This document shows positions 26,338 through 51,295 of a DNA stretch of 64,000 bases, one piece after another (the first letter of the stretch is position 1; each line of letters starts with the position of its first letter). The notes under the pieces were generated by a model that had not been told where the DNA came from, made no database searches, and saw nothing but the letters and a program-made list of their open reading frames with translations. The stretch is from Candidatus Actinomarina sp. Lineage in GTDB: Bacteria; Actinomycetota; Acidimicrobiia; Actinomarinales; Actinomarinaceae. The position numbers and the translations under genes are program-made. The stretch is taken from contig JAYQJM010000005.1 in assembly GCA_038142145.1 (NCBI GenBank), positions 147,978 through 211,977 on the forward strand, given 5' to 3'.

Positions 26338-26405
26338 ATTTAATTAAATAAATAATAAGACTTTTTACATTAAATTCAATTTATAATATTTATAACGAGC
26401 AAATT

Positions 26406-26535
26406 AGCGCCAGGCCTTTTATAGGTGACGAGGTAGTATGTTATCGAAAAATTCGGCGGATGCATACTCGGCTCTACGGTCGTAATAAATTGTTTAAAAA
26501 CAGCAAGAAATTGTTGAACAGAGGCAATTTAACGT
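26406..26535 (+). ncRNA. glmS ribozyme: glmS ribozyme (GlcN6P-dependent self-cleaving leader)
   Basis: Conserved core blocks are read directly: A|GCGCCAG (26406-), GACGAGG, GUUAUCGAA, UUCGGCGGAUGC, CGUAA, UUGAACA. Compensatory helices: AGUAUG 26435-40/CAUACU 26463-68, UAAAUUG 26486-92/CAAUUUA 26525-31, CAGCAA/UUGUUG hairpin. It lies immediately 5' of glmS. Confidence 0.88.
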
Positions 26536-26573
26536 AGTCTTATTTCAACTTGCTCGTTGGAATGGAGAATATA

Positions 26574-28370
26574 ATGTGTGGAATTGTAGGCTACTCAGGC
26601 CCTAAAGAACCTTTACCAATTTTATTAGGTGGTTTATCAAGATTAGAGTATCGAGGATATGACTCTTCTGGAATAGCTATTTTAAACAATAATGACTTAA
26701 TTATTGAAAAAAAAGAAGGCAAGTTATCTTCATTGGTTCAACATCTTGAAGGTAAAACAATTAAAGGCAGTATTGGAATTGGTCACACTAGATGGGCAAC
26801 ACACGGTGTTCCTAGTGATAACAATGCTCATCCTCATTCAGATAATCAAAACGAGTTCGCAATCATTCACAATGGTATTGTTGAAAATTATTCTGAGATG
26901 AAAGATGAACTAATAGAACAAGGCTACACTTTTTCATCTGATACAGATACGGAAGTTGTTGCTGTCGAGTTAAGCAATGAATGGTCAGGCGATCTATTAG
27001 AAACTGTTTTAAATGTAGCAAAAAAACTAGAAGGTACGTATGCACTCGTTGTAACAACAGTGAAACAACCTGATGTAATAGTGGCAGGTAGAATGATGAG
27101 TCCCTTAGTGCTCGGTGTTGGTGACGATGAAGTATTTCTTGCATCTGATTCTGCAGCAATTCTTGAGCACACAAATAAAATGATATTCTTGGAAAATGGG
27201 GATTTTGTAAAAATTGAAAATGGTCATTTTGAACTTTTTGATATAAATAAAAATAAAATTTCAAGAGAAATTCAAGTCATTGATTGGGAAGTTTCTGAAG
27301 CTGAGAAAGGCGGTCATGACCACTTTATGTATAAAGAAATATTAGAGCAACCTGAAGTAATAGAGAGAACAATCAGCGGTCGCTTGGCAGGAAGTGAAAG
27401 CGATATACCTATAAGTAGAGAAGAGGCTCAAAAATTTGAGAAAATATGGATTGTCGCATGTGGAACGGCATATCACGCAGGCTTATTTGGCAAGGATTTG
27501 TTTGAAAAGGTATTAGGTGTACCCGTAAGCGTTGAGTTGGCATCAGAGTTTAGATATAGAGAACCAATTGTTGGAAAGAATGATTTAGGTATAGTCATAT
27601 CACAATCAGGAGAAACAATGGACACAATTGCTGCAACTGAGCTTCTTAAAGAAAATGATGCTCATGTACTAGCATTTGTAAATGTTGTTGGGAGCTCTTT
27701 AGCAAGAATGGCAGATAGCGTGTTGTACCTTCATGTAGGTCCTGAGATTGGTGTTGCTTCTACAAAGGCATATCTTGGCATGCTCATAGGCCAGCTGTTA
27801 GTTGCAAAACACTGGGATGAAGAGAACAAACTAAATATTTCTTATGATGAAATAAATGAATTACCTAAATTAATTCAAGAAACATTAAATTGTGAAGATC
27901 AAATTAAAAGTCTTTCAAAGAAGATTTCAAAAAAGAAAGATATTTATTTTATCGGCAGAGGGCTAGATTATGCACTTGCAGCAGAAGGTGCTTTGAAATT
28001 AAAAGAGATTTCTTATCTTCATGCAGAAGCATTGGCCGCAGGGGAGCTTAAACATGGTACTCTAGCCTTAATTGAAGACGATACTCCTGTAATTGTTACA
28101 GCAAGTCAAAATCATTTATTAGACAAAACAACAAGTAATGTGCAAGAGGTAATTGCTCGTGGGGCGTATGTGATTTCAATTGGAGATAATTCATCTAAAA
28201 AGTTAGAAGACATATCTAATGAATATGTAACTTTACCAACTACATCAGAGGTATTATCAACAATAATTTCTATAATCCCTCTTCAATTTATTGCATATCA
28301 TGTCGCAAATTTGAACGGTGAGTCCATAGATCAACCAAGAAACCTAGCCAAATCTGTTACTGTTGAGTAG
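26574..28370 (+). CDS. glmS: Glutamine--fructose-6-phosphate aminotransferase
   Basis: Start set at ATG 26574 (MCGIVGY, catalytic N-terminal Cys), with GGAG SD 6 nt upstream. Two SIS domains; C-terminal ...KSVTVE. Confidence 0.97.
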   Translation: MCGIVGYSGPKEPLPILLGGLSRLEYRGYDSSGIAILNNNDLIIEKKEGKLSSLVQHLEGKTIKGSIGIGHTRWATHGVPSDNNAHPHSDNQNEFAIIHNGIVENYSEMKDELIEQGYTFSSDTDTEVVAVELSNEWSGDLLETVLNVAKKLEGTYALVVTTVKQPDVIVAGRMMSPLVLGVGDDEVFLASDSAAILEHTNKMIFLENGDFVKIENGHFELFDINKNKISREIQVIDWEVSEAEKGGHDHFMYKEILEQPEVIERTISGRLAGSESDIPISREEAQKFEKIWIVACGTAYHAGLFGKDLFEKVLGVPVSVELASEFRYREPIVGKNDLGIVISQSGETMDTIAATELLKENDAHVLAFVNVVGSSLARMADSVLYLHVGPEIGVASTKAYLGMLIGQLLVAKHWDEENKLNISYDEINELPKLIQETLNCEDQIKSLSKKISKKKDIYFIGRGLDYALAAEGALKLKEISYLHAEALAAGELKHGTLALIEDDTPVIVTASQNHLLDKTTSNVQEVIARGAYVISIGDNSSKKLEDISNEYVTLPTTSEVLSTIISIIPLQFIAYHVANLNGESIDQPRNLAKSVTVE

Positions 28371-42532: not shown

Positions 42533-43573
42533 TTAACTATCTTCTACTTGAATGTCTGCATTTTCTAAAATATTTCTTAATAAGTCAGAAACATCATATT
42601 TTTTTTCATTTCTTAAATCTTTCCTGAGTTGATTTATTTCATTAACTATCATTTCAAGAGCATGTGTATTTTTTATATTTTTTTCAACTTGAATTTCTAA
42701 ATCAGCAATTTTTTTCGAAAGCTCATCTTTAATATTTGTTTTTTCTTTTTTGGTTGGTTGAGATTCAATAAAATTTGATTCTGATAGGTAGCTTTGAATA
42801 TCACTCAACTTTCCTTCAGAGCCACTTTCAAAAACAACATTATTATCTTTTGTTACTAAAGTCACATTTCCCAGACCTTTTACTTTGTATCTGTTGTCTC
42901 TACCAGTAATTATTAATGCAGTATGCTCATCAATTCCAAGCAAGTTAGTGTACTCAATATTTAACAAGCTATTAATTCTTTTTGCACCAACATAACTGTA
43001 ACTTGTATCATGGTTGCCTCCTTCTTTGTTATTAAAGTGAGGGACAACTGTACAGTTTAAATCAAACAATTTAAGAATATTTAAACCTTTTTCCCAATAA
43101 GGATCTATCCCGACTTTATATATTTCGTATACAGGAAGTGTAAATTCACCTAAAGTTGAAGCTGCAGCACTTGCAAATAATGCTTTTCCACCTTTATTAA
43201 TATGATTTTTAAAAAGATTCTCTATTTCTCCTTTAGCCCAAAGCTTGCTTGCATAACTTGGACTTCCGGGACCAGCAAAAATAAACTCAGCTTTTTCTAA
43301 TAGTGCAATAGTTTTAAAAAATTGTGGTGTGTTTAAATCAGACATCTTTCTGAAAGTGGCTAATTTAATATCAGTATTTAAACTAGTTTTATAAAATTCA
43401 ATTAACTTATCTACTAATAAATCTGCATTTTCTTGGAATCCAAAAGGTGAGTCTAAAATATAAGAGCTGTTTTTTTCGTTACAATCTTCCAGAAGCTCTC
43501 TATGAACGCTTACAAGGTTAGGGCTAGTCTCCCCAGAACCTAAAATTGCGATTGTACCTAACGTTGTAGACAT
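42533..43573 (-). CDS. Conserved hypothetical protein: class-I glutamine-amidotransferase/peptidase-S51-like N-domain, then a coiled coil and a CysRS-C-terminus-like tail
   Basis: ILGSGETSP start, IFAGPGSP and FASAAASTLG blocks, PHFNNKEGG. The C-terminal RKDLRNEKKYDVSDLLRNILENADIQVEDS resembles the extreme C-terminus of cysteinyl-tRNA synthetases. Family assignment is by eye only. Confidence 0.45.
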   Translation of the reverse strand: MSTTLGTIAILGSGETSPNLVSVHRELLEDCNEKNSSYILDSPFGFQENADLLVDKLIEFYKTSLNTDIKLATFRKMSDLNTPQFFKTIALLEKAEFIFAGPGSPSYASKLWAKGEIENLFKNHINKGGKALFASAAASTLGEFTLPVYEIYKVGIDPYWEKGLNILKLFDLNCTVVPHFNNKEGGNHDTSYSYVGAKRINSLLNIEYTNLLGIDEHTALIITGRDNRYKVKGLGNVTLVTKDNNVVFESGSEGKLSDIQSYLSESNFIESQPTKKEKTNIKDELSKKIADLEIQVEKNIKNTHALEMIVNEINQLRKDLRNEKKYDVSDLLRNILENADIQVEDS

Positions 43574-43624: not shown

Positions 43625-44623
43625 GTGGTCTGGTTAATAGCTAAAATTTTAGAAAAATTTACTTTAGAAATCGTTCCTAAATTACCAATTCAAATAAGAA
43701 CTAAATTATTTAGAAGTGTTTTAAAATTCAGAAAAATAAGAGATAAAGCTCGTTTAGATGTAACAAATTCAAATCCAACTTTTGAACAGAGGCTTGAATA
43801 TGCTTTAGATTCAAGAGTTGGCCTCAACACCTCAGGCCAAAATTTATTAACATATAGTGAAAGTATTCAATTTTCACAAATAGGTGATGCACCAGTAAAT
43901 ACTTATAAGTTTGAACCTCGTAGTCCCAATCCTTCGAAGTATGCAATTTATTTTCATGGTGGGGGATACTTTGCTGGAAGCATCACTTCACATAAAAATT
44001 TTGTTTCAAAACTTTCAGAAAAGACAAATTTAACGATTTATTTTTTTGAATATCGATTAAGTCCTGAGTATTTATTTCCTTCAGCACATGACGATGCAAA
44101 GATAGCGGTAGATTTTATATCCTCTCTCCATCCTGATAAACAAAGTATTTGGATAGGAGAATCTGCTGGAGGAGGTCTAGCAACTGGATTATGTGTGGAT
44201 TATGATTACTTAGTTAGACCAGATAACTTAATTTTACTTTCTCCATGGTTAGATTTATCTGATAAAGAGGAGGATAAGAAATATTTAAAAAATAGGGACA
44301 TAACCATTATTATCAACGGAATGCATGATGTAGGAGAGTTTTATTCTTCAGAACACTCTTCTGACAATCCTATTCTTTCTCCAATCTATGCAGATATTAA
44401 ATCCTTTCCGGATACCTTGATTCAGGTATGTGCAGATGAACTTTTGTATAATGATGCAATTGAATTCACAAAAAAGTTAAAAGAAAAAAATGTCAATGTT
44501 AATTTACAAACTTGGAACGGTCTTTGGCATGCTTGGCAATTCTTCCCAATAAAAGAAGCGAACGAAGCAATAAACTTGATAGTTAAATACGTTAAATCTT
44601 CTGAAAATCAATCTTCTAGATGA
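43625..44623 (+). CDS. Alpha/beta-hydrolase fold-3 esterase/lipase (HSL family)
   Basis: GTG start; HGGGY oxyanion motif and GESAGGG nucleophile elbow; 332 aa. Confidence 0.8.
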   Translation: MVWLIAKILEKFTLEIVPKLPIQIRTKLFRSVLKFRKIRDKARLDVTNSNPTFEQRLEYALDSRVGLNTSGQNLLTYSESIQFSQIGDAPVNTYKFEPRSPNPSKYAIYFHGGGYFAGSITSHKNFVSKLSEKTNLTIYFFEYRLSPEYLFPSAHDDAKIAVDFISSLHPDKQSIWIGESAGGGLATGLCVDYDYLVRPDNLILLSPWLDLSDKEEDKKYLKNRDITIIINGMHDVGEFYSSEHSSDNPILSPIYADIKSFPDTLIQVCADELLYNDAIEFTKKLKEKNVNVNLQTWNGLWHAWQFFPIKEANEAINLIVKYVKSSENQSSR

Positions 44624-45351
44624 TGGAGTGCAAATCCAAAAGGAAGTTCTAATCGATTTTCTTTCATAATTTCTTCGTTAGTTAAAATTGAATAAGTTTT
44701 GTCTCTGGTTTTGATCTCACCATTATTTAAGATAATGCTTTCATCACATATTTCTAAAGCCATAGGTAAATCGTGCGTAACCAAAATTATCGTCACATCT
44801 AGATTTTTAAGTATCTCAATAAGTTCTCTTCTAGAAGCAGGATCTAAATTTGAACTTGGTTCATCTAATACTATTAATTCAGGGTTTATTGCTATTACAC
44901 TAGCTATTGCTACTTTTCTTTTTTGACCAAAGCTCAAATGGTGAGGAGGTTTATTTAAAAATTCTTTCATTTTAACTTTTTCTAAAGCTTCTATTGCTTT
45001 TGATTCTGCTTCTTCATTTGTGTATCCAAAATTTTTTGGTCCAAACATCACATCCTCTAAGACTGTTGGCATAAATAATTGATCATCAGGATCTTGAAAA
45101 ACTATACCTACTTTTTCTCTAATTTTTTTTAAATTATCTTCGTTGATGCTTAAGTTGTTAATGTAAATTGAATCATCTAAATTTCCCAAAATGCCATTTA
45201 AATGAAGTATGAAAGTTGTCTTTCCTGCACCATTGGGTCCTAAAACACCTATGGTATCACCTTTGTTTATTTCTAAATTTATATTTTTTAATGCTTCATA
45301 ACCATCTGGATATGAAAAATTTAAATCATTTATTTGTAAATAGTTTTTCAT
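44608..45351 (-). CDS. cbiO: ECF/cobalt-type ABC transporter ATP-binding protein
   Basis: Walker A GPNGAGKTT, signature LSFGQKRKV, Walker B LIVLDEPSS; 247 aa; overlaps the upstream T-component gene. Confidence 0.85.
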   Translation of the reverse strand: MKNYLQINDLNFSYPDGYEALKNINLEINKGDTIGVLGPNGAGKTTFILHLNGILGNLDDSIYINNLSINEDNLKKIREKVGIVFQDPDDQLFMPTVLEDVMFGPKNFGYTNEEAESKAIEALEKVKMKEFLNKPPHHLSFGQKRKVAIASVIAINPELIVLDEPSSNLDPASRRELIEILKNLDVTIILVTHDLPMALEICDESIILNNGEIKTRDKTYSILTNEEIMKENRLELPFGFALHHLED

Positions 45352-46112
45352 AAATAGAACCTATCAATAATCAAGTTGGTAACAGCCAAAAAAGACAATA
45401 AGTATAAAAAATTAGATTTTTCATAGGTTCTATTCTTTAATTCGATAGTACCATTAAACCCTCTTGAGATCATTGAGTTATAAACCCTTTCTCCTCTTTC
45501 GTATCCTCTAATAAGCAATGCACCTGATGCAAAAGCAAGAGGTTTTAATCCTTTGAAACCATTTTCAATATAGCCTCTTGATTTCATTGCTATCCGCACT
45601 CTCTTAACCTCATCAATAAATACATCTATGTATCTAATTGCGAAAGAAAAAATAGCAATTAATAAAGGAGAAATTTTAAGTTTCTGAAGACCATAAATAA
45701 TTTCTATATTTGAAGTTGTAGCAGTTAGTACTATTGCAAGAGTTACGCATAAAGTAATTTTGATAAGTATATTTGTCATTTCCAATACACCAGTTTTGTA
45801 CACATTTAGATTTAGAACTTTAAATAGTACTTCATTGTTGCCTTTACTCAGAAAGGGTAAAAATAAAGCAAATAATACAAATGGTATGTCTACAGATAAC
45901 CGTTTTAAATATGTAGAGAGTCTTAGTTTAGATAGCCAAAGTAAATAAATTACAATTGCAGATTGTGAAAGGATAATTGAGTAATTTTCTAAGCTTAGAA
46001 AAGCAATAGACAATACAATCACAAACACTGTAAAAATCTTAACTTGAGGCTTTAGTAAATTTAGCTTTGAGTTGTTATGGAGCTGTAGGTGATGGGAGTG
46101 TGTTGTTTCCAT
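45348..46112 (-). CDS. cbiQ: ECF transporter transmembrane (T/CbiQ) component with His-rich N-terminus
   Basis: 254 aa polytopic protein. Two coupling-helix motifs, IAMKSRGY and MISRGFNG (Ala-Arg-Gly-type). N-terminal METTHSHHLQLH. Confidence 0.78.
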   Translation of the reverse strand: METTHSHHLQLHNNSKLNLLKPQVKIFTVFVIVLSIAFLSLENYSIILSQSAIVIYLLWLSKLRLSTYLKRLSVDIPFVLFALFLPFLSKGNNEVLFKVLNLNVYKTGVLEMTNILIKITLCVTLAIVLTATTSNIEIIYGLQKLKISPLLIAIFSFAIRYIDVFIDEVKRVRIAMKSRGYIENGFKGLKPLAFASGALLIRGYERGERVYNSMISRGFNGTIELKNRTYEKSNFLYLLSFLAVTNLIIDRFYL

Positions 46113-46127
46113 TATTAATTATCTTAA

Positions 46128-46142
46128 TGCAAATCACTTGCA
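46128..46142. promoter_or_regulatory. 15-bp palindrome TGCAAATCACTTGCA between the fur-family gene and cbiQ (candidate Fur/Zur-family operator)
   Basis: Inverted repeat TGCAA-N5-TTGCA, 16-30 nt upstream of the cbiQ ATG. Layout resembles the TGAAAATGATTTTCA-type actinobacterial Zur box (11/15 identical by eye). Confidence 0.3.
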
Positions 46143-46154
46143 ATAAAAGAAATA

Positions 46155-46562
46155 TTAACAATTTTTGCACAAGCCAGAATAAATAAAATGGTTTCTAACT
46201 TCTTTGAAATTTAAATCTCTTTTTAACTCATTATTTATTTTTTCAACTGTTTTATTGCTAACGTCAAATATTTTATTGCAGTTGTAACAGGTCATATGTA
46301 TGGAATTATTTTTTTCTTTCTTGTAGTAAATACCTGAACCGTGTTCTTGATGTGCATGCTCAATTAAATTTAACTCTTCTAAAAGTTCTAATGTTCTGTA
46401 AACAGTTGTTAAATCTATAGTTTTATCAATCGTTTGTGTTTTAGTGTGTATTTCATCAACCGAATAATGAGAATGGCCAGAAGATTCTAAGATGTCACAA
46501 ATGACCTCTCTTGCTTTGGAAATCCTATATCCGTTGTCTTTTAGTTCTTTAACAAAACTCAT
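46155..46562 (-). CDS. Fur-family metalloregulator (Zur/Nur/PerR class unresolved)
   Basis: Start set at MSFVKELKDNGYRISKAREVICDIL (ATG 46562). HAHQEHG metal site and two CxxC pairs (CYNC, CKNC). The hydrophobic 18-aa extension in the track is rejected. Confidence 0.85.
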   Translation of the reverse strand: MSFVKELKDNGYRISKAREVICDILESSGHSHYSVDEIHTKTQTIDKTIDLTTVYRTLELLEELNLIEHAHQEHGSGIYYKKEKNNSIHMTCYNCNKIFDVSNKTVEKINNELKRDLNFKEVRNHFIYSGLCKNC

Positions 46563-46596
46563 CAATATGTATATTATAAGTTTTAGAAAGAAACCT

Positions 46597-47070
46597 ATGA
46601 AGAAAAAAATTATCAAAATTTTAAATAGATATAGCTTAATTTACCTTCCTTTAGGCTGGGTTTTGGGTTTAGGAATAATTTTTGCAACTTTTGATCCACC
46701 ACAGGTCTTGTATTTCCTTAGTTTTATTGTTGTAGGAGTGTTTATAGCTCTCATAATCTACACCTCAAATAGGGGGGTAGTTGACGATATGTTTAATTTT
46801 GAGAATCAGGAATATTCTATAATTGAATTTTATTCAGACTACTGACTAGGCTGTACTGCATCAAAATTCATAGTTGATGAATTTAAGAAACAGAATCCAG
46901 AGATTGTATTTTTTCCGATCAATGCGAGCAAACAGAGCAATCATCCTTATGTAGAATTATTTAAACTTTTCAATACCCCAACATATGTATTAGTAAACAA
47001 AGAAGGCAAAGTTTTAGCTAGAAGAGTTGGTACCTTTAGCGGTCCACACTTTAAACGATATATTCCTTAA
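46597..47070 (+). CDS. Membrane-anchored thioredoxin-fold protein with in-frame TGA at the first redox Cys (candidate UxxC selenoprotein; alternatively a nonsense pseudogene)
   Basis: ATG 46597 (MKKKIIKIL..., two hydrophobic helices) ...NQEYSIIEFYSDY-TGA(46843-45)-LGCTASKFIVDEFKKQNPEIVFFPINASKQSNHPYVELFKLFNTPTYVLVNKEGKVLARRVGTFSGPHFKRYIP-TAA(47068-70). The frame is the same on both sides of the TGA, and the sequence is colinear with the thioredoxin WCxxC...cis-Pro...G pattern. Confidence 0.6.
46859..46879 (+). promoter_or_regulatory. Hairpin 13 nt downstream of the in-frame TGA (possible bacterial SECIS apical stem-loop)
   Basis: catcaa (46859-64) / ttgatg (46874-79) 6-bp stem, 9-nt loop aattcatag. 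Spacing is compatible with bSECIS but the stem is short. Confidence 0.3.
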
Positions 47071-47402
47071 GATATTTTTTCACCCAACTCTGCATTTGGC
47101 TCAGGGCTCAAAAGTAAGACTTCGTTATTTTTAGTTATTGATCCTAAGACCAGGCATTGGCTTATAAAAGGTCCTACTTGCTTTTCGCCTAGATTTACTA
47201 CGCTTATAACTTTTCTATCTAATAAATCTTCTTTGGAGTAATTTGTAATCTGTGCGCTACTTTTTTTTAACCCTATAGCTTCTCCAAAGTCAATTTCTAA
47301 TTTATAAGCTGGTTTAATTGCCTCTTCAAAATCTTCAACTTTGATAATTTTTCCAACTCTTATGTCTAAATCAAAAAATAAATTTACTAATTCACTATTC
47401 AT
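47067..47402 (-). CDS. csaA: tRNA-binding-domain protein (CsaA/Trbp111-like)
   Basis: 111 aa; DLDIRVGKIIKVE...KLEIDFGE...SSAQITN... OB-fold pattern. Its stop overlaps the convergent thioredoxin-like gene stop (TTAA). Confidence 0.8.
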   Translation of the reverse strand: MNSELVNLFFDLDIRVGKIIKVEDFEEAIKPAYKLEIDFGEAIGLKKSSAQITNYSKEDLLDRKVISVVNLGEKQVGPFISQCLVLGSITKNNEVLLLSPEPNAELGEKIS

Positions 47403-49591: not shown

Positions 49592-50717
49592 TATTTCTAA
49601 CTCTTGGATCTATGTATACGTGAAAAATACTTATAGCAATTCTTAAAAATGTTGAAAGCAGTGCTAAAAGTAAAAATATACCCATTGCAGCGTTTGAATC
49701 TTGATTCAAGATAGTTCTGTATAGCATTGATCCCATTCCGGACCAGCTAGTTGTTGATTCTACAATCACTAAAGATGCAATTAGGTACGGCAGGCTTAAT
49801 CCTAGCCTATTAGCAAATGGTCCAAAAGAGTTATTGAGAATATGTTGTTTATAGATAGTTGATTTTGAATAACCCAAAGCTCTAGCAGTCAATATGTGGG
49901 GTTCTCTTGAAATATTTTGAATGATTACATTATTCATTAACATATATTCTCCAAATAAAAATACAGTCAAAATAATTATTGTTTTAGTCGCATTCTTTGA
50001 AGCAAATATTATTTCATTAAAAATTATTTCATCTAATGCTATAAAAATATATGACATTACAGATAATGAAATTAAAAGTTTCAAATATGAAAAATTAATA
50101 CCTGAAATTAGCTCAGTAAAAAAAATAAATATTAAAACCAATGCTAATAAAAATATAAAAAGATGAAAATTAAATGTAAATTCTGAAAACTCTATTAAAG
50201 AAGTAGGAGTTTTTTTTATTTCAAAGTACTGAGTAAATTTAGAAAAATAGTTTTCGAGTTTGTCACTTATCAAAAAGTATACAATTGGTGGAAATAGACT
50301 AATAAGCAATGTAGATATTGAATCCGAAACTATCTTATTTTTATACAAGCGTTTTATTGGAGTTTTGATTGCAGAAATGCGAGATGTGAAATATGCAAGG
50401 AAAAATGAAGGTATCAAAATCTGTAATGTAGGAAATATAGTGGATGTAATATCTTTGCTGCTATTTCTCATAAACCCACCAGGTGTAATTTCTCCAGAAA
50501 ATACACTAATTACCCACCGAAAGTACTGTTTGTAAATAGGATCATCAGCTCCTAACGACGCTCTGAGTTCATCAAGTTCTTGCTGGCTCATCATTAGCCT
50601 TAAAGGAGTTAGAAAGTCTCCAGGGATTAAAATATTTATGAAATAGTACATTAAAAATAAGAAAATAAAAATCGACAATATTGATGATCGAATTTCTTTT
50701 AATATAAATTTTGTCAT
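49584..50717 (-). CDS. Peptide/nickel-type ABC transporter permease (OppB/DppB family) with long hydrophobic insertion
   Basis: N-terminal ...LIPGDF, EAA-loop region LTARALGYSKSTIYKQHILNN, C-terminal YIDPRVR. 377 aa, versus the roughly 310 aa typical of the family as I recall it. Confidence 0.82.
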   Translation of the reverse strand: MTKFILKEIRSSILSIFIFLFLMYYFINILIPGDFLTPLRLMMSQQELDELRASLGADDPIYKQYFRWVISVFSGEITPGGFMRNSSKDITSTIFPTLQILIPSFFLAYFTSRISAIKTPIKRLYKNKIVSDSISTLLISLFPPIVYFLISDKLENYFSKFTQYFEIKKTPTSLIEFSEFTFNFHLFIFLLALVLIFIFFTELISGINFSYLKLLISLSVMSYIFIALDEIIFNEIIFASKNATKTIIILTVFLFGEYMLMNNVIIQNISREPHILTARALGYSKSTIYKQHILNNSFGPFANRLGLSLPYLIASLVIVESTTSWSGMGSMLYRTILNQDSNAAMGIFLLLALLSTFLRIAISIFHVYIDPRVRNNV

Positions 50718-51295
50718 TTTCTCATATCAACATATGGAAGTACCTTTTGTACAACTGGTCCAATTCCAATTACAAATAGTATTGTAACGTAACCAACAAG
50801 TCCTCCAAGCAACCACCCAGTTAAAAATGCAAATAATTCAATAATATTTCTTGCGAATCCGATTTTTAAACCAAGAGCTTCAAGACCTGTCATAATTCCA
50901 TCTCTTGGACCAACGCCAAGTCCTGCACCAACATATATCGCTGTTCCGGACCCAATTGCAATAATTCCTAAAAAGATTAATAATCCACTTTGAAACAAAT
51001 TAGAAGCCACATTAAAAGAAGGTATTATTAAATCTGCTACTGTACCAACTAGAAAGACATCAATTAAAGTTCCAATCCCTGGTTTCTGTTTTAGTGGAAT
51101 CCACAGCAACATAATAAAAATACCTGTAAAAATAATTGTTCTTCCATATGTTATTCCTAATGTTTTGGAAAGTCCGTCGTGAAATACTCCCCAAGGTCCT
51201 AAGCCTAGATTTGCTAGGTAATTCAAAGAGATGCCAACACCAATTAATGAAGTACCAAAAAAAACTTGAAATAATTGTCTAAGAATTCTTGGCAT
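50714..51295 (-). CDS. YczE-like integral membrane protein
   Basis: 193 aa; LGLGPWGVF and GVGPRDG motifs typical of the YczE/YitT-related family (by eye). Confidence 0.6.
   Translation of the reverse strand: MPRILRQLFQVFFGTSLIGVGISLNYLANLGLGPWGVFHDGLSKTLGITYGRTIIFTGIFIMLLWIPLKQKPGIGTLIDVFLVGTVADLIIPSFNVASNLFQSGLLIFLGIIAIGSGTAIYVGAGLGVGPRDGIMTGLEALGLKIGFARNIIELFAFLTGWLLGGLVGYVTILFVIGIGPVVQKVLPYVDMRK

Follow-up and report, generated by a model that had tools for sequence, protein, structure and literature searches.

Few free-living bacteria of the surface ocean are as abundant or as small as Candidatus Actinomarina. We analyzed 64,000 nucleotides (nt) of DNA from Candidatus Actinomarina sp. 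(assembly GCA_038142145.1, contig JAYQJM010000005.1, positions 147,978 to 211,977 of the forward strand), here called the window, and focused on a candidate selenoprotein gene at window positions 46597-47070. It lies between a divergent Fur-family regulator gene and a convergent csaA gene (Table 1). An initial annotation, made from the letters of the window alone, had noticed that a reading frame ending at TGA 46843-46845 stays open behind this codon to TAA 47068-47070, and had proposed that the TGA encodes selenocysteine (Sec, U) at the first position of a UxxC redox motif in a membrane-anchored thioredoxin-fold protein. The frame is as described there, with 74 open codons after the TGA. Its translation starts with MKKKIIKILNRYS..., passes through two hydrophobic segments and continues as ...IIEFYSDY, TGA, LGCTASKFIVDEF...NTPTYVLVNKEGKVLARRVG.... 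The TGA is the only one within the frame, and no in-frame start codon follows it in the window gene.

Table 1. Features at the candidate selenoprotein locus (window coordinates).
Feature	Position	Strand	Description
Fur-family regulator gene	46155..46562	-	135 amino acids; PF01475, E 7e-25; divergent, 34-bp gap
Divergent intergenic region, 34 bp	46563..46596		Conserved A+T-rich motif; -10-like box on both strands
Candidate selenoprotein gene	46597..47070	+	ATG to TAA 47068-47070; 157 codons plus TAA; predicted Sec at codon 83
Predicted two-helix membrane hairpin	46636..46755	+	Hydrophobic residues ~14-30 and ~37-53, after a K/R-rich N terminus and the conserved N-R-Y-S (residues 10-13)
UGA, predicted to be recoded	46843..46845	+	U83, first residue of the U-L-G-C redox motif
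Cys86 (TGT)	46852..46854	+	Predicted resolving cysteine of UxxC; column invariant family-wide; TGT and TGC alternate
Predicted SECIS hairpin	46864..46884	+	5' arm 46864-46871 AAAUUCAU; loop 46872-46876 AGUUG; 3' arm 46877-46884 AUGAAUUU
cis-Pro128 (CCA), T-P-T	46978..46980	+	Family-invariant; aligns with the thioredoxin MPT/IPT loop; precedes model strand 129-134
csaA (tRNA-binding/chaperone CsaA)	47067..47402	-	PF01588; TIGR02222 and NF007494 above cut-offs

To characterize the encoded protein, an AlphaFold2 model was built on an alignment of 29 homologues (mean predicted local distance difference test score, 79). The model starts with two helices (residues 2-31 and 34-57), in which the Kyte-Doolittle hydrophobic segments are located (residues 14-30 and 37-53); the two hydrophobic helices of the initial annotation were thus recovered. 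Residues N10, Y12, and S13 of the N-terminal motif are invariant. The remainder of the chain is modeled as a minimal thioredoxin fold, with strands (E) and helices (H) in the order E73-79, H84-99, E104-109, H117-121, E129-134, E139-144, and H149-153. A Foldseek comparison to the PDB returned classical thioredoxins with a probability of 1.0 and target-normalised template modeling scores (TMt) of 0.66-0.77. In a profile search of PDB sequences, EFYsDY-[U]-L-G-C was aligned on DFYADW-C-G-P-C, and N-T-P-T-Y-V was aligned on S-M-P-T-F-V of the cis-Pro loop, which identifies T127-P128-T129 as this loop. The alignment on CGPC places the TGA exactly at the attacking Cys of CxxC, where the initial annotation had located it. 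Since strand beta1 is encoded before the TGA and helix alpha1 after it, the fold requires one chain rather than two separate products.

The protein is not a classical TrxA. It scored 18.4 bits in the equivalog model TIGR01068, which has a cut-off of 96.8 bits, its motif is Y-U-L-G-C and not WCGPC, and it carries two membrane helices. When the window-type protein and 34 relatives were compared to NCBIfam, no match at E <= 0.01 was obtained for the selenoprotein models GOS_C (NF045500), SaoT (NF040730), HUIPC (NF047660), and VPGUxxT (NF041383). The matches were to generic thioredoxin models and, weakly, to seleno_TsoB (13 members) and seleno_TsoX (one member).

Conservation of the TGA was analyzed in related genomes. 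A protein search yielded 67 relatives with 47-98% identity, nearly all of them with a length of 157 amino acids and with a "W" printed at the TGA position; four protein clusters end at ...SDY. In the DNA of 21 metagenomic loci, the aligned codon was TGA in every case. A scan of one genome per GTDB species added 48 loci, all with TGA before L-G-C and with 74 open codons after it, except for one locus cut by a contig end. Nearly all of these 48 are named Candidatus Actinomarina, Actinomarinales, OCS155, or Acidimicrobiaceae; the rest bear generic or stray bin names. In total, the TGA was kept in 69 of 69 Actinomarinales loci. The printed "W" is a gene-calling artefact, resulting from the use of translation table 4 for short A+T-rich contigs; under table 11 the loci fail to yield the query. 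Public protein sets therefore misannotate this gene systematically, either truncating it at the UGA or printing Trp at the predicted Sec position.

Codons around the TGA are free to change. In 57 distinct genes, the flanking codons vary synonymously (GAC/GAT, TAC/TAT, CTA/CTT/CTG/CTC, GGN with all four Gly codons, and TGT/TGC), and the TGA is invariant. The Nei-Gojobori ratio of nonsynonymous to synonymous substitution rates (dN/dS) was 0.15-0.20 upstream of the TGA (82 codons) and 0.25 downstream of it (74 codons). This purifying selection on both sides excludes a decaying remnant and indicates that both halves are translated. The downstream half contains neither frameshifts nor extra stops, as had been stated, and the selection test proposed for it gave a clear answer. 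As a side observation, one locus (L067:10001-10207), from the metagenome-assembled genome Candidatus Actinomarina sp. 02um_A1B0725_3.57, has L-G-F (TTT) in place of L-G-C after the TGA. This replacement of the resolving Cys reflects an error of assembly or else a naturally occurring U-x-x-F variant.

To collect more distant homologues, 1.84 billion representative proteins were searched exhaustively with a profile, which gave 238 relatives at E < 1e-3. Many of them share the whole architecture, i.e., the N-x-Y-S motif, two helices, and a thioredoxin domain. In 128 distant representatives, the redox position was occupied by Cys in 125 domain matches and by "W" in 34 (31 with the motif Cys and three without). 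At the DNA level, the distant "W" forms had TGA in all 23 loci read, never TGG, in genomes with 27-62% GC. Two of these 23 TGA loci came from a first fetch and 21 from a metagenome search with 23 loci, the remaining two of which carry TGT. Three Cys-form lineages with TGT or TGC at this position were found, one of which is syntenic. This nearest Cys form (P0080) has the motif Y-C-A-G-C with TGT, and its contigs have 32% GC. Its gene order matches that of the window: abhydrolase, energy-coupling factor (ECF) ATPase, CbiQ, (CbiM), Fur, thioredoxin-like gene, csaA, FMN reductase, and acyltransferase. P0080, which comes from a related lineage, is a positional orthologue as judged from this order. 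Among orthologues, alternation of Sec and Cys is a classical selenoprotein signature. The orthologue alignment proposed in the initial annotation thus returned TGA throughout Actinomarinales and TGT or TGC in distant relatives and in one syntenic orthologue.

Two further observations were made in these contigs. The syntenic Cys-form lineage has cbiM between cbiQ and fur (L095:3565-4494). In the window (45348-46562) and at the other Actinomarina loci, cbiQ is followed directly by fur, and the ECF transporter is thus encoded here without an adjacent substrate-capture component. In addition, a 29% GC marine contig contains a second candidate selenoprotein gene (L076:4748-5302, plus strand), which reads ...KFLFFLSKY-TGA-GTC-RSEL... 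and would give a U-G-T-C motif. It is a lipoprotein-like open reading frame (ORF) of the TlpA/redoxin type, located 1.5 kb from a gene for a distant two-helix thioredoxin selenoprotein. The gene context of the distant homologues was not conserved, contained no Fur gene, and gave no functional clue.

Next to the TGA, we searched for a selenocysteine insertion sequence (SECIS). Bacterial SECIS elements have a stem of 6-8 bp and a conserved G in the loop and are located downstream of the UGA (PMC4605307). In the window, a hairpin of 8 bp with a 5-nt loop begins 18 nt after the UGA. Its core of 6 bp (46865-46870 with 46878-46883) is conserved family-wide, and G46873 and U46874 of the loop are invariant. 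Codons 89-95, which form it, are nearly frozen synonymously (TCA 55/57, AAA 55/57, TTC 55/55, ATA 57/57, GTT 57/57, and GAA 53/57), whereas between two and four codons are in use at flanking amino-acid columns of equal conservation. Within Actinomarina, RNAalifold predicted a 7-bp stem, which was paired in all 41 distinct sequences. The stem remains paired through its few changes (A to G, which yields G.U, and U-A to C-G via U.G).

In the distant TGA forms, the same codon positions contain a hairpin with other arms: AGCCUG-(N2)GUNGA-CAGGCU, encoding K-P-x-V-D-R-L. When 27 sequences (genome GC, 27-62%) were combined in one gap-free alignment, 99.4% of the cells of the cross-family core were paired, and five of the six pairs had changed on both sides. 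None of 500 shuffled controls reached the covariation score or the percentage paired, and slid partner columns paired in at most 46%. In the three Cys-form lineages, only two to three of the six core pairs form. The initial annotation was thus right in expecting a hairpin after the TGA, which turned out to be conserved and covarying, and wrong about its location. The hairpin it had named (46859-64/46874-79) overlaps the conserved one and is present in the window sequence (-3.8 kcal/mol), but shows no covariation; of its six pairs, one is disrupted in 26 and another in 18 of the 41 distinct sequences, and it was rejected as the SECIS.

The alternation of Sec and Cys, the conserved TGA, and the hairpin specific to the Sec forms indicate that the locus encodes a selenoprotein and is not a broken gene. 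With a probability of roughly 90%, 46597-47070 encodes one polypeptide of 157 residues in which UGA 46843-45 is translated as Sec. Each of the tests proposed in the initial annotation that we ran supported the UxxC selenoprotein reading.

Based on these data and on the established bacterial pathway, the following mechanism can be proposed. The mRNA would fold into the short hairpin after the UGA, presenting the invariant G-U in its loop; this step is supported by the conservation described above. SelB loaded with Sec-tRNA(Sec) would then bind the hairpin at the mRNA entrance of the ribosome and, competing with RF2, deliver Sec to the UGA in the A site. The product would be tethered to the membrane by its two N-terminal helices, with U83-x-x-C86 at the N terminus of alpha1 and the cis-Pro128 loop opposite. 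By analogy to thioredoxin chemistry, it may act as a thiol/selenol-disulfide oxidoreductase, in which Sec attacks and Cys86 resolves the selenenylsulfide. U83 and C86 would thus cycle between the selenol/thiol and the selenenylsulfide state, reducing or isomerising a substrate disulfide or a related oxidised sulfur species.

Several points weigh against a selenoprotein with a SECIS at this locus. The window protein remains below the Pfam gathering thresholds for thioredoxins (20.1 vs 23.5 bits for PF00085 and 20.0 vs 27 bits for PF13098), whereas PF00085 is matched at E < 1e-3 by 30 of 35 members of the family. At -4.7 kcal/mol (z = -1.7; z = -0.39 for 60 nt), the hairpin is weak. Taken alone it is thermodynamically not significant, and the case for a SECIS therefore rests on the comparative data. 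In these data, most of the compensatory differences separate two clades and correspond to few independent events, and some variation exists within clades. The conserved loop G lies 28 nt after the UGA, vs ~20 nt typically, and standard SECIS predictors might reject the hairpin. A permissive Rfam scan of 46780-46960 gave only chance snoRNA-like matches, and at the gathering threshold a glmS ribozyme was the only hit in the whole window. Further, ARAGORN detected no tRNA, and hence no tRNA-Sec, in the window or in the 48 Actinomarina loci, which cover only ~20 kb per genome, and there was no sel gene among the window ORFs examined. The presence of the Sec genes is taken from one unreviewed preprint that used automated tools (10.64898/2026.04.03.716425). 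Finally, Sec at residue 83 of the protein of this uncultured organism is a prediction from sequence.

In that preprint (bioRxiv, April 2026), tRNA-Sec (selC), selA, and selD were reported for all 84 complete Actinomarina genomes, and selB was present in all of them just below the profile threshold; a selenouridine synthase was found in none of the 84 (10.64898/2026.04.03.716425). Its deep-Sep predictions amount to ~5 selenoproteins per Actinomarina genome. It names a 78-amino-acid unknown protein, SelD, and a K07090 protein, and no SECIS was found with Rfam models (10.64898/2026.04.03.716425). The tables of the preprint do not list selenoprotein families, and their single "thioredoxin" entry is an annotated K03671 thioredoxin and not a selenoprotein (10.64898/2026.04.03.716425). 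Our gene is probably among the unnamed deep-Sep candidates, undescribed there.

The UGA could also be read through without Sec, an explanation that we consider improbable. In this case, the hairpin would slow termination and a near-cognate tRNA (Trp or Cys) would be used, giving a WxxC or CxxC protein. A short and A-U-rich hairpin would be compatible with this, as would the reported divergence of selB (10.64898/2026.04.03.716425) and the absence of Sec-machinery genes from the window and the ~20-kb loci. However, TGA and TGT/TGC were the only codons at this position in all the DNA examined, and TGG did not occur. With Trp as the nucleophile residue, the redox motif would be lost, and a lineage in need of Cys has the option of encoding it directly, like the syntenic orthologue. 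Moreover, selA, selC, and selD are reported for all complete genomes (10.64898/2026.04.03.716425). Alternatively, the TGA could be a real stop, so that an 82-residue membrane peptide is made and the downstream 74 codons are untranslated or produced by re-initiation. Gene callers using table 11 do stop there, and four protein clusters in the database end at ...SDY. Yet the downstream part has a dN/dS of 0.25 and always exactly 74 open codons, the TGA would split the thioredoxin fold between beta1 (73-79) and alpha1 (84-99), no in-frame start codon follows it, and the Cys forms are uninterrupted. The chance that the TGA terminates translation here is accordingly very slight.

From the window alone, a single in-frame stop would also be compatible with a nonsense pseudogene, created by a recent mutation of TGT or TGG to TGA. 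We give this practically no weight, since all 48 species representatives and metagenomes from around the world (protein identity, 47-98%) have the TGA fixed, the gene is free of second lesions throughout, and purifying selection acts on both sides. Genome-wide reassignment of TGA (table 4 or 25), with Trp or Gly at this position, would agree with the A+T-rich genome and with the "W" in public predictions, which stems from metagenomic-mode gene calling on short contigs. It is just as negligible, because TGA is an ordinary stop codon in this genome. The stop codon is TAA in 50, TGA in 17, and TAG in 11 of the 78 non-overlapping ORFs of at least 90 amino acids in the window. Behind the 17 TGA stops, the frame remains open only briefly, and tightly packed ribosomal-protein genes are among these ORFs; the initial annotation had likewise excluded global recoding. 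No other gene in the 64 kb needs read-through of TGA: apart from antisense artefacts, a scan for TGA-bridged frames returned only infA and rpmJ, whose sharing of one frame is ordinary. In summary of the alternatives, the data exclude a pseudogene, a code reassignment, and a split gene.

The selenoprotein was then compared to known systems. Described bacterial thioredoxin-fold UxxC selenoproteins include the selenoprotein thioredoxin (PF00085, e.g., of Treponema denticola) and, from the Sargasso Sea and Global Ocean Sampling (GOS) metagenomes, the predicted "thiol:disulfide interchange protein" (PF13098) and "thiol-disulfide isomerase-like" families (PMC9312934, PMC13188914). Reviews of prokaryotic selenoproteins give several such families, none of them two-helix and membrane-anchored (PMC9312934, PMC13188914). 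The Actinomarina protein shares with them the thioredoxin fold, Sec in place of the N-terminal Cys of CxxC, the existence of Cys homologues, a SECIS within the ORF, and the marine metagenomic origin. In contrast to them, it has a two-helix N-terminal anchor with an N-x-Y-S motif and weak model scores (18-20 bits). TlpA, ResA, and CcmG (DsbE) are also membrane-tethered thioredoxin-fold domains, and a few relatives match them weakly. These proteins, however, have one anchor, an extracytoplasmic domain, and a central insertion, whereas here two helices, a minimal fold, and, in Actinomarina, a predicted cytoplasmic domain are found.

The hairpin resembles the SelB-recognised SECIS elements of Escherichia coli fdhF/fdnG and Moorella thermoacetica fdhA in its 6-8 bp stem, its location within the ORF, and the G of its apical loop (here G-U). 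Unlike in those elements, the Actinomarina stem consists almost entirely of A-U pairs, the loop G is at 28 nt instead of ~20 nt, and no bulged U is evident. Also unlike them, both arms encode a conserved helix segment (K-F-I-V-D-E-F in Actinomarina and K-P-x-V-D-R-L in the distant forms). SECIS predictors for low-GC genomes could profit from being trained on such an A-U-rich hairpin of 6-8 bp. We conclude that this is a new sub-family within the thioredoxin-fold UxxC selenoproteins, relying on a bacterial SECIS within the ORF and involving no new principle.

The gene agrees with the Actinomarina deep-Sep selenoproteome in coming from the same organism, for which a universal Sec machinery was reported, and differs from that set as described, since the preprint text contains no thioredoxin-like selenoprotein (10.64898/2026.04.03.716425). 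Sec use by Actinomarina was first reported in 2026, with its targets undescribed (10.64898/2026.04.03.716425). The present locus offers a concrete Sec target that is universal in the order and has a SECIS missed by standard models. Sec and Cys orthologues that occur naturally in one shared gene context provide a ready comparison for what selenium buys. A more far-reaching proposal, which we consider tentative and rather doubtful, is that this is the sole selenoprotein fixed in every Actinomarinales species (48/48, no Cys reversion) and hence a main reason why a streamlined 1.1-Mb genome keeps the Sec pathway. The same proposal would include a widespread, undescribed two-helix Sec/Cys thioredoxin family with its own minimal SECIS in the alpha1 codons, a divergent SelB, and an orientation possibly flipped between clades.

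This last element refers to the charges around the helices. In Actinomarinales, four to six Lys/Arg residues are present at the N terminus and none in the acidic loop between the helices. Most of the distant relatives show the reverse pattern, with an uncharged N terminus and a K/R-rich loop; N-x-Y-S precedes helix 1 in both clades. The positive-inside rule thus predicts a cytoplasmic catalytic domain in Actinomarinales and an extracytoplasmic one in most of the distant relatives.

The neighborhood of the gene is also conserved. The tight packing and the divergent Fur-family partner of the initial annotation were both confirmed. On the downstream side, the csaA stop (47067-47069, minus strand) overlaps the stop of the selenoprotein gene, and this overlap is kept across loci. 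On the upstream side, the Fur-family gene adjoins divergently in every locus with upstream sequence, the Cys-form lineage included, and the gap measures 34 bp in all Actinomarinales. Its product scored far under the cut-offs of both the Fur and the PerR model. Comparison of 45 distinct upstream sequences showed that the A+T-rich motif in the gap is AAGTATATTATAAG in most loci, with AAGTATAATTTG as an alternative; the window has ATGTATATTATAAG. A promoter role of this motif is inferred. The Fur ATG is located ~5-8 nt from it. From this arrangement, the fur transcript may be leaderless, and the 34-bp gap may hold divergent promoters that overlap, or an operator. The divergent pairing with a Fur-family gene, together with the A+T-rich motif, suggests that the selenoprotein gene may be under metal- or peroxide-responsive control.

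Some minor observations concern other parts of the window. The ECF ATPase gene (44608-45351, minus strand) ends in TGA and is followed by 61 open in-frame codons, which extend into the converging abhydrolase gene; this is probably due to chance. Two ORFs on the minus strand, 42533-43573 (346 amino acids) and 50714-51295 (193 amino acids), had no Pfam match at E <= 1e-5. The glmS ribozyme mentioned above is full-length (RF00234, 85 bits vs a gathering threshold of 37) and lies at 26395-26541 on the plus strand, directly 5' of ORF 26550-28370, which encodes 606 amino acids and is presumably glmS.

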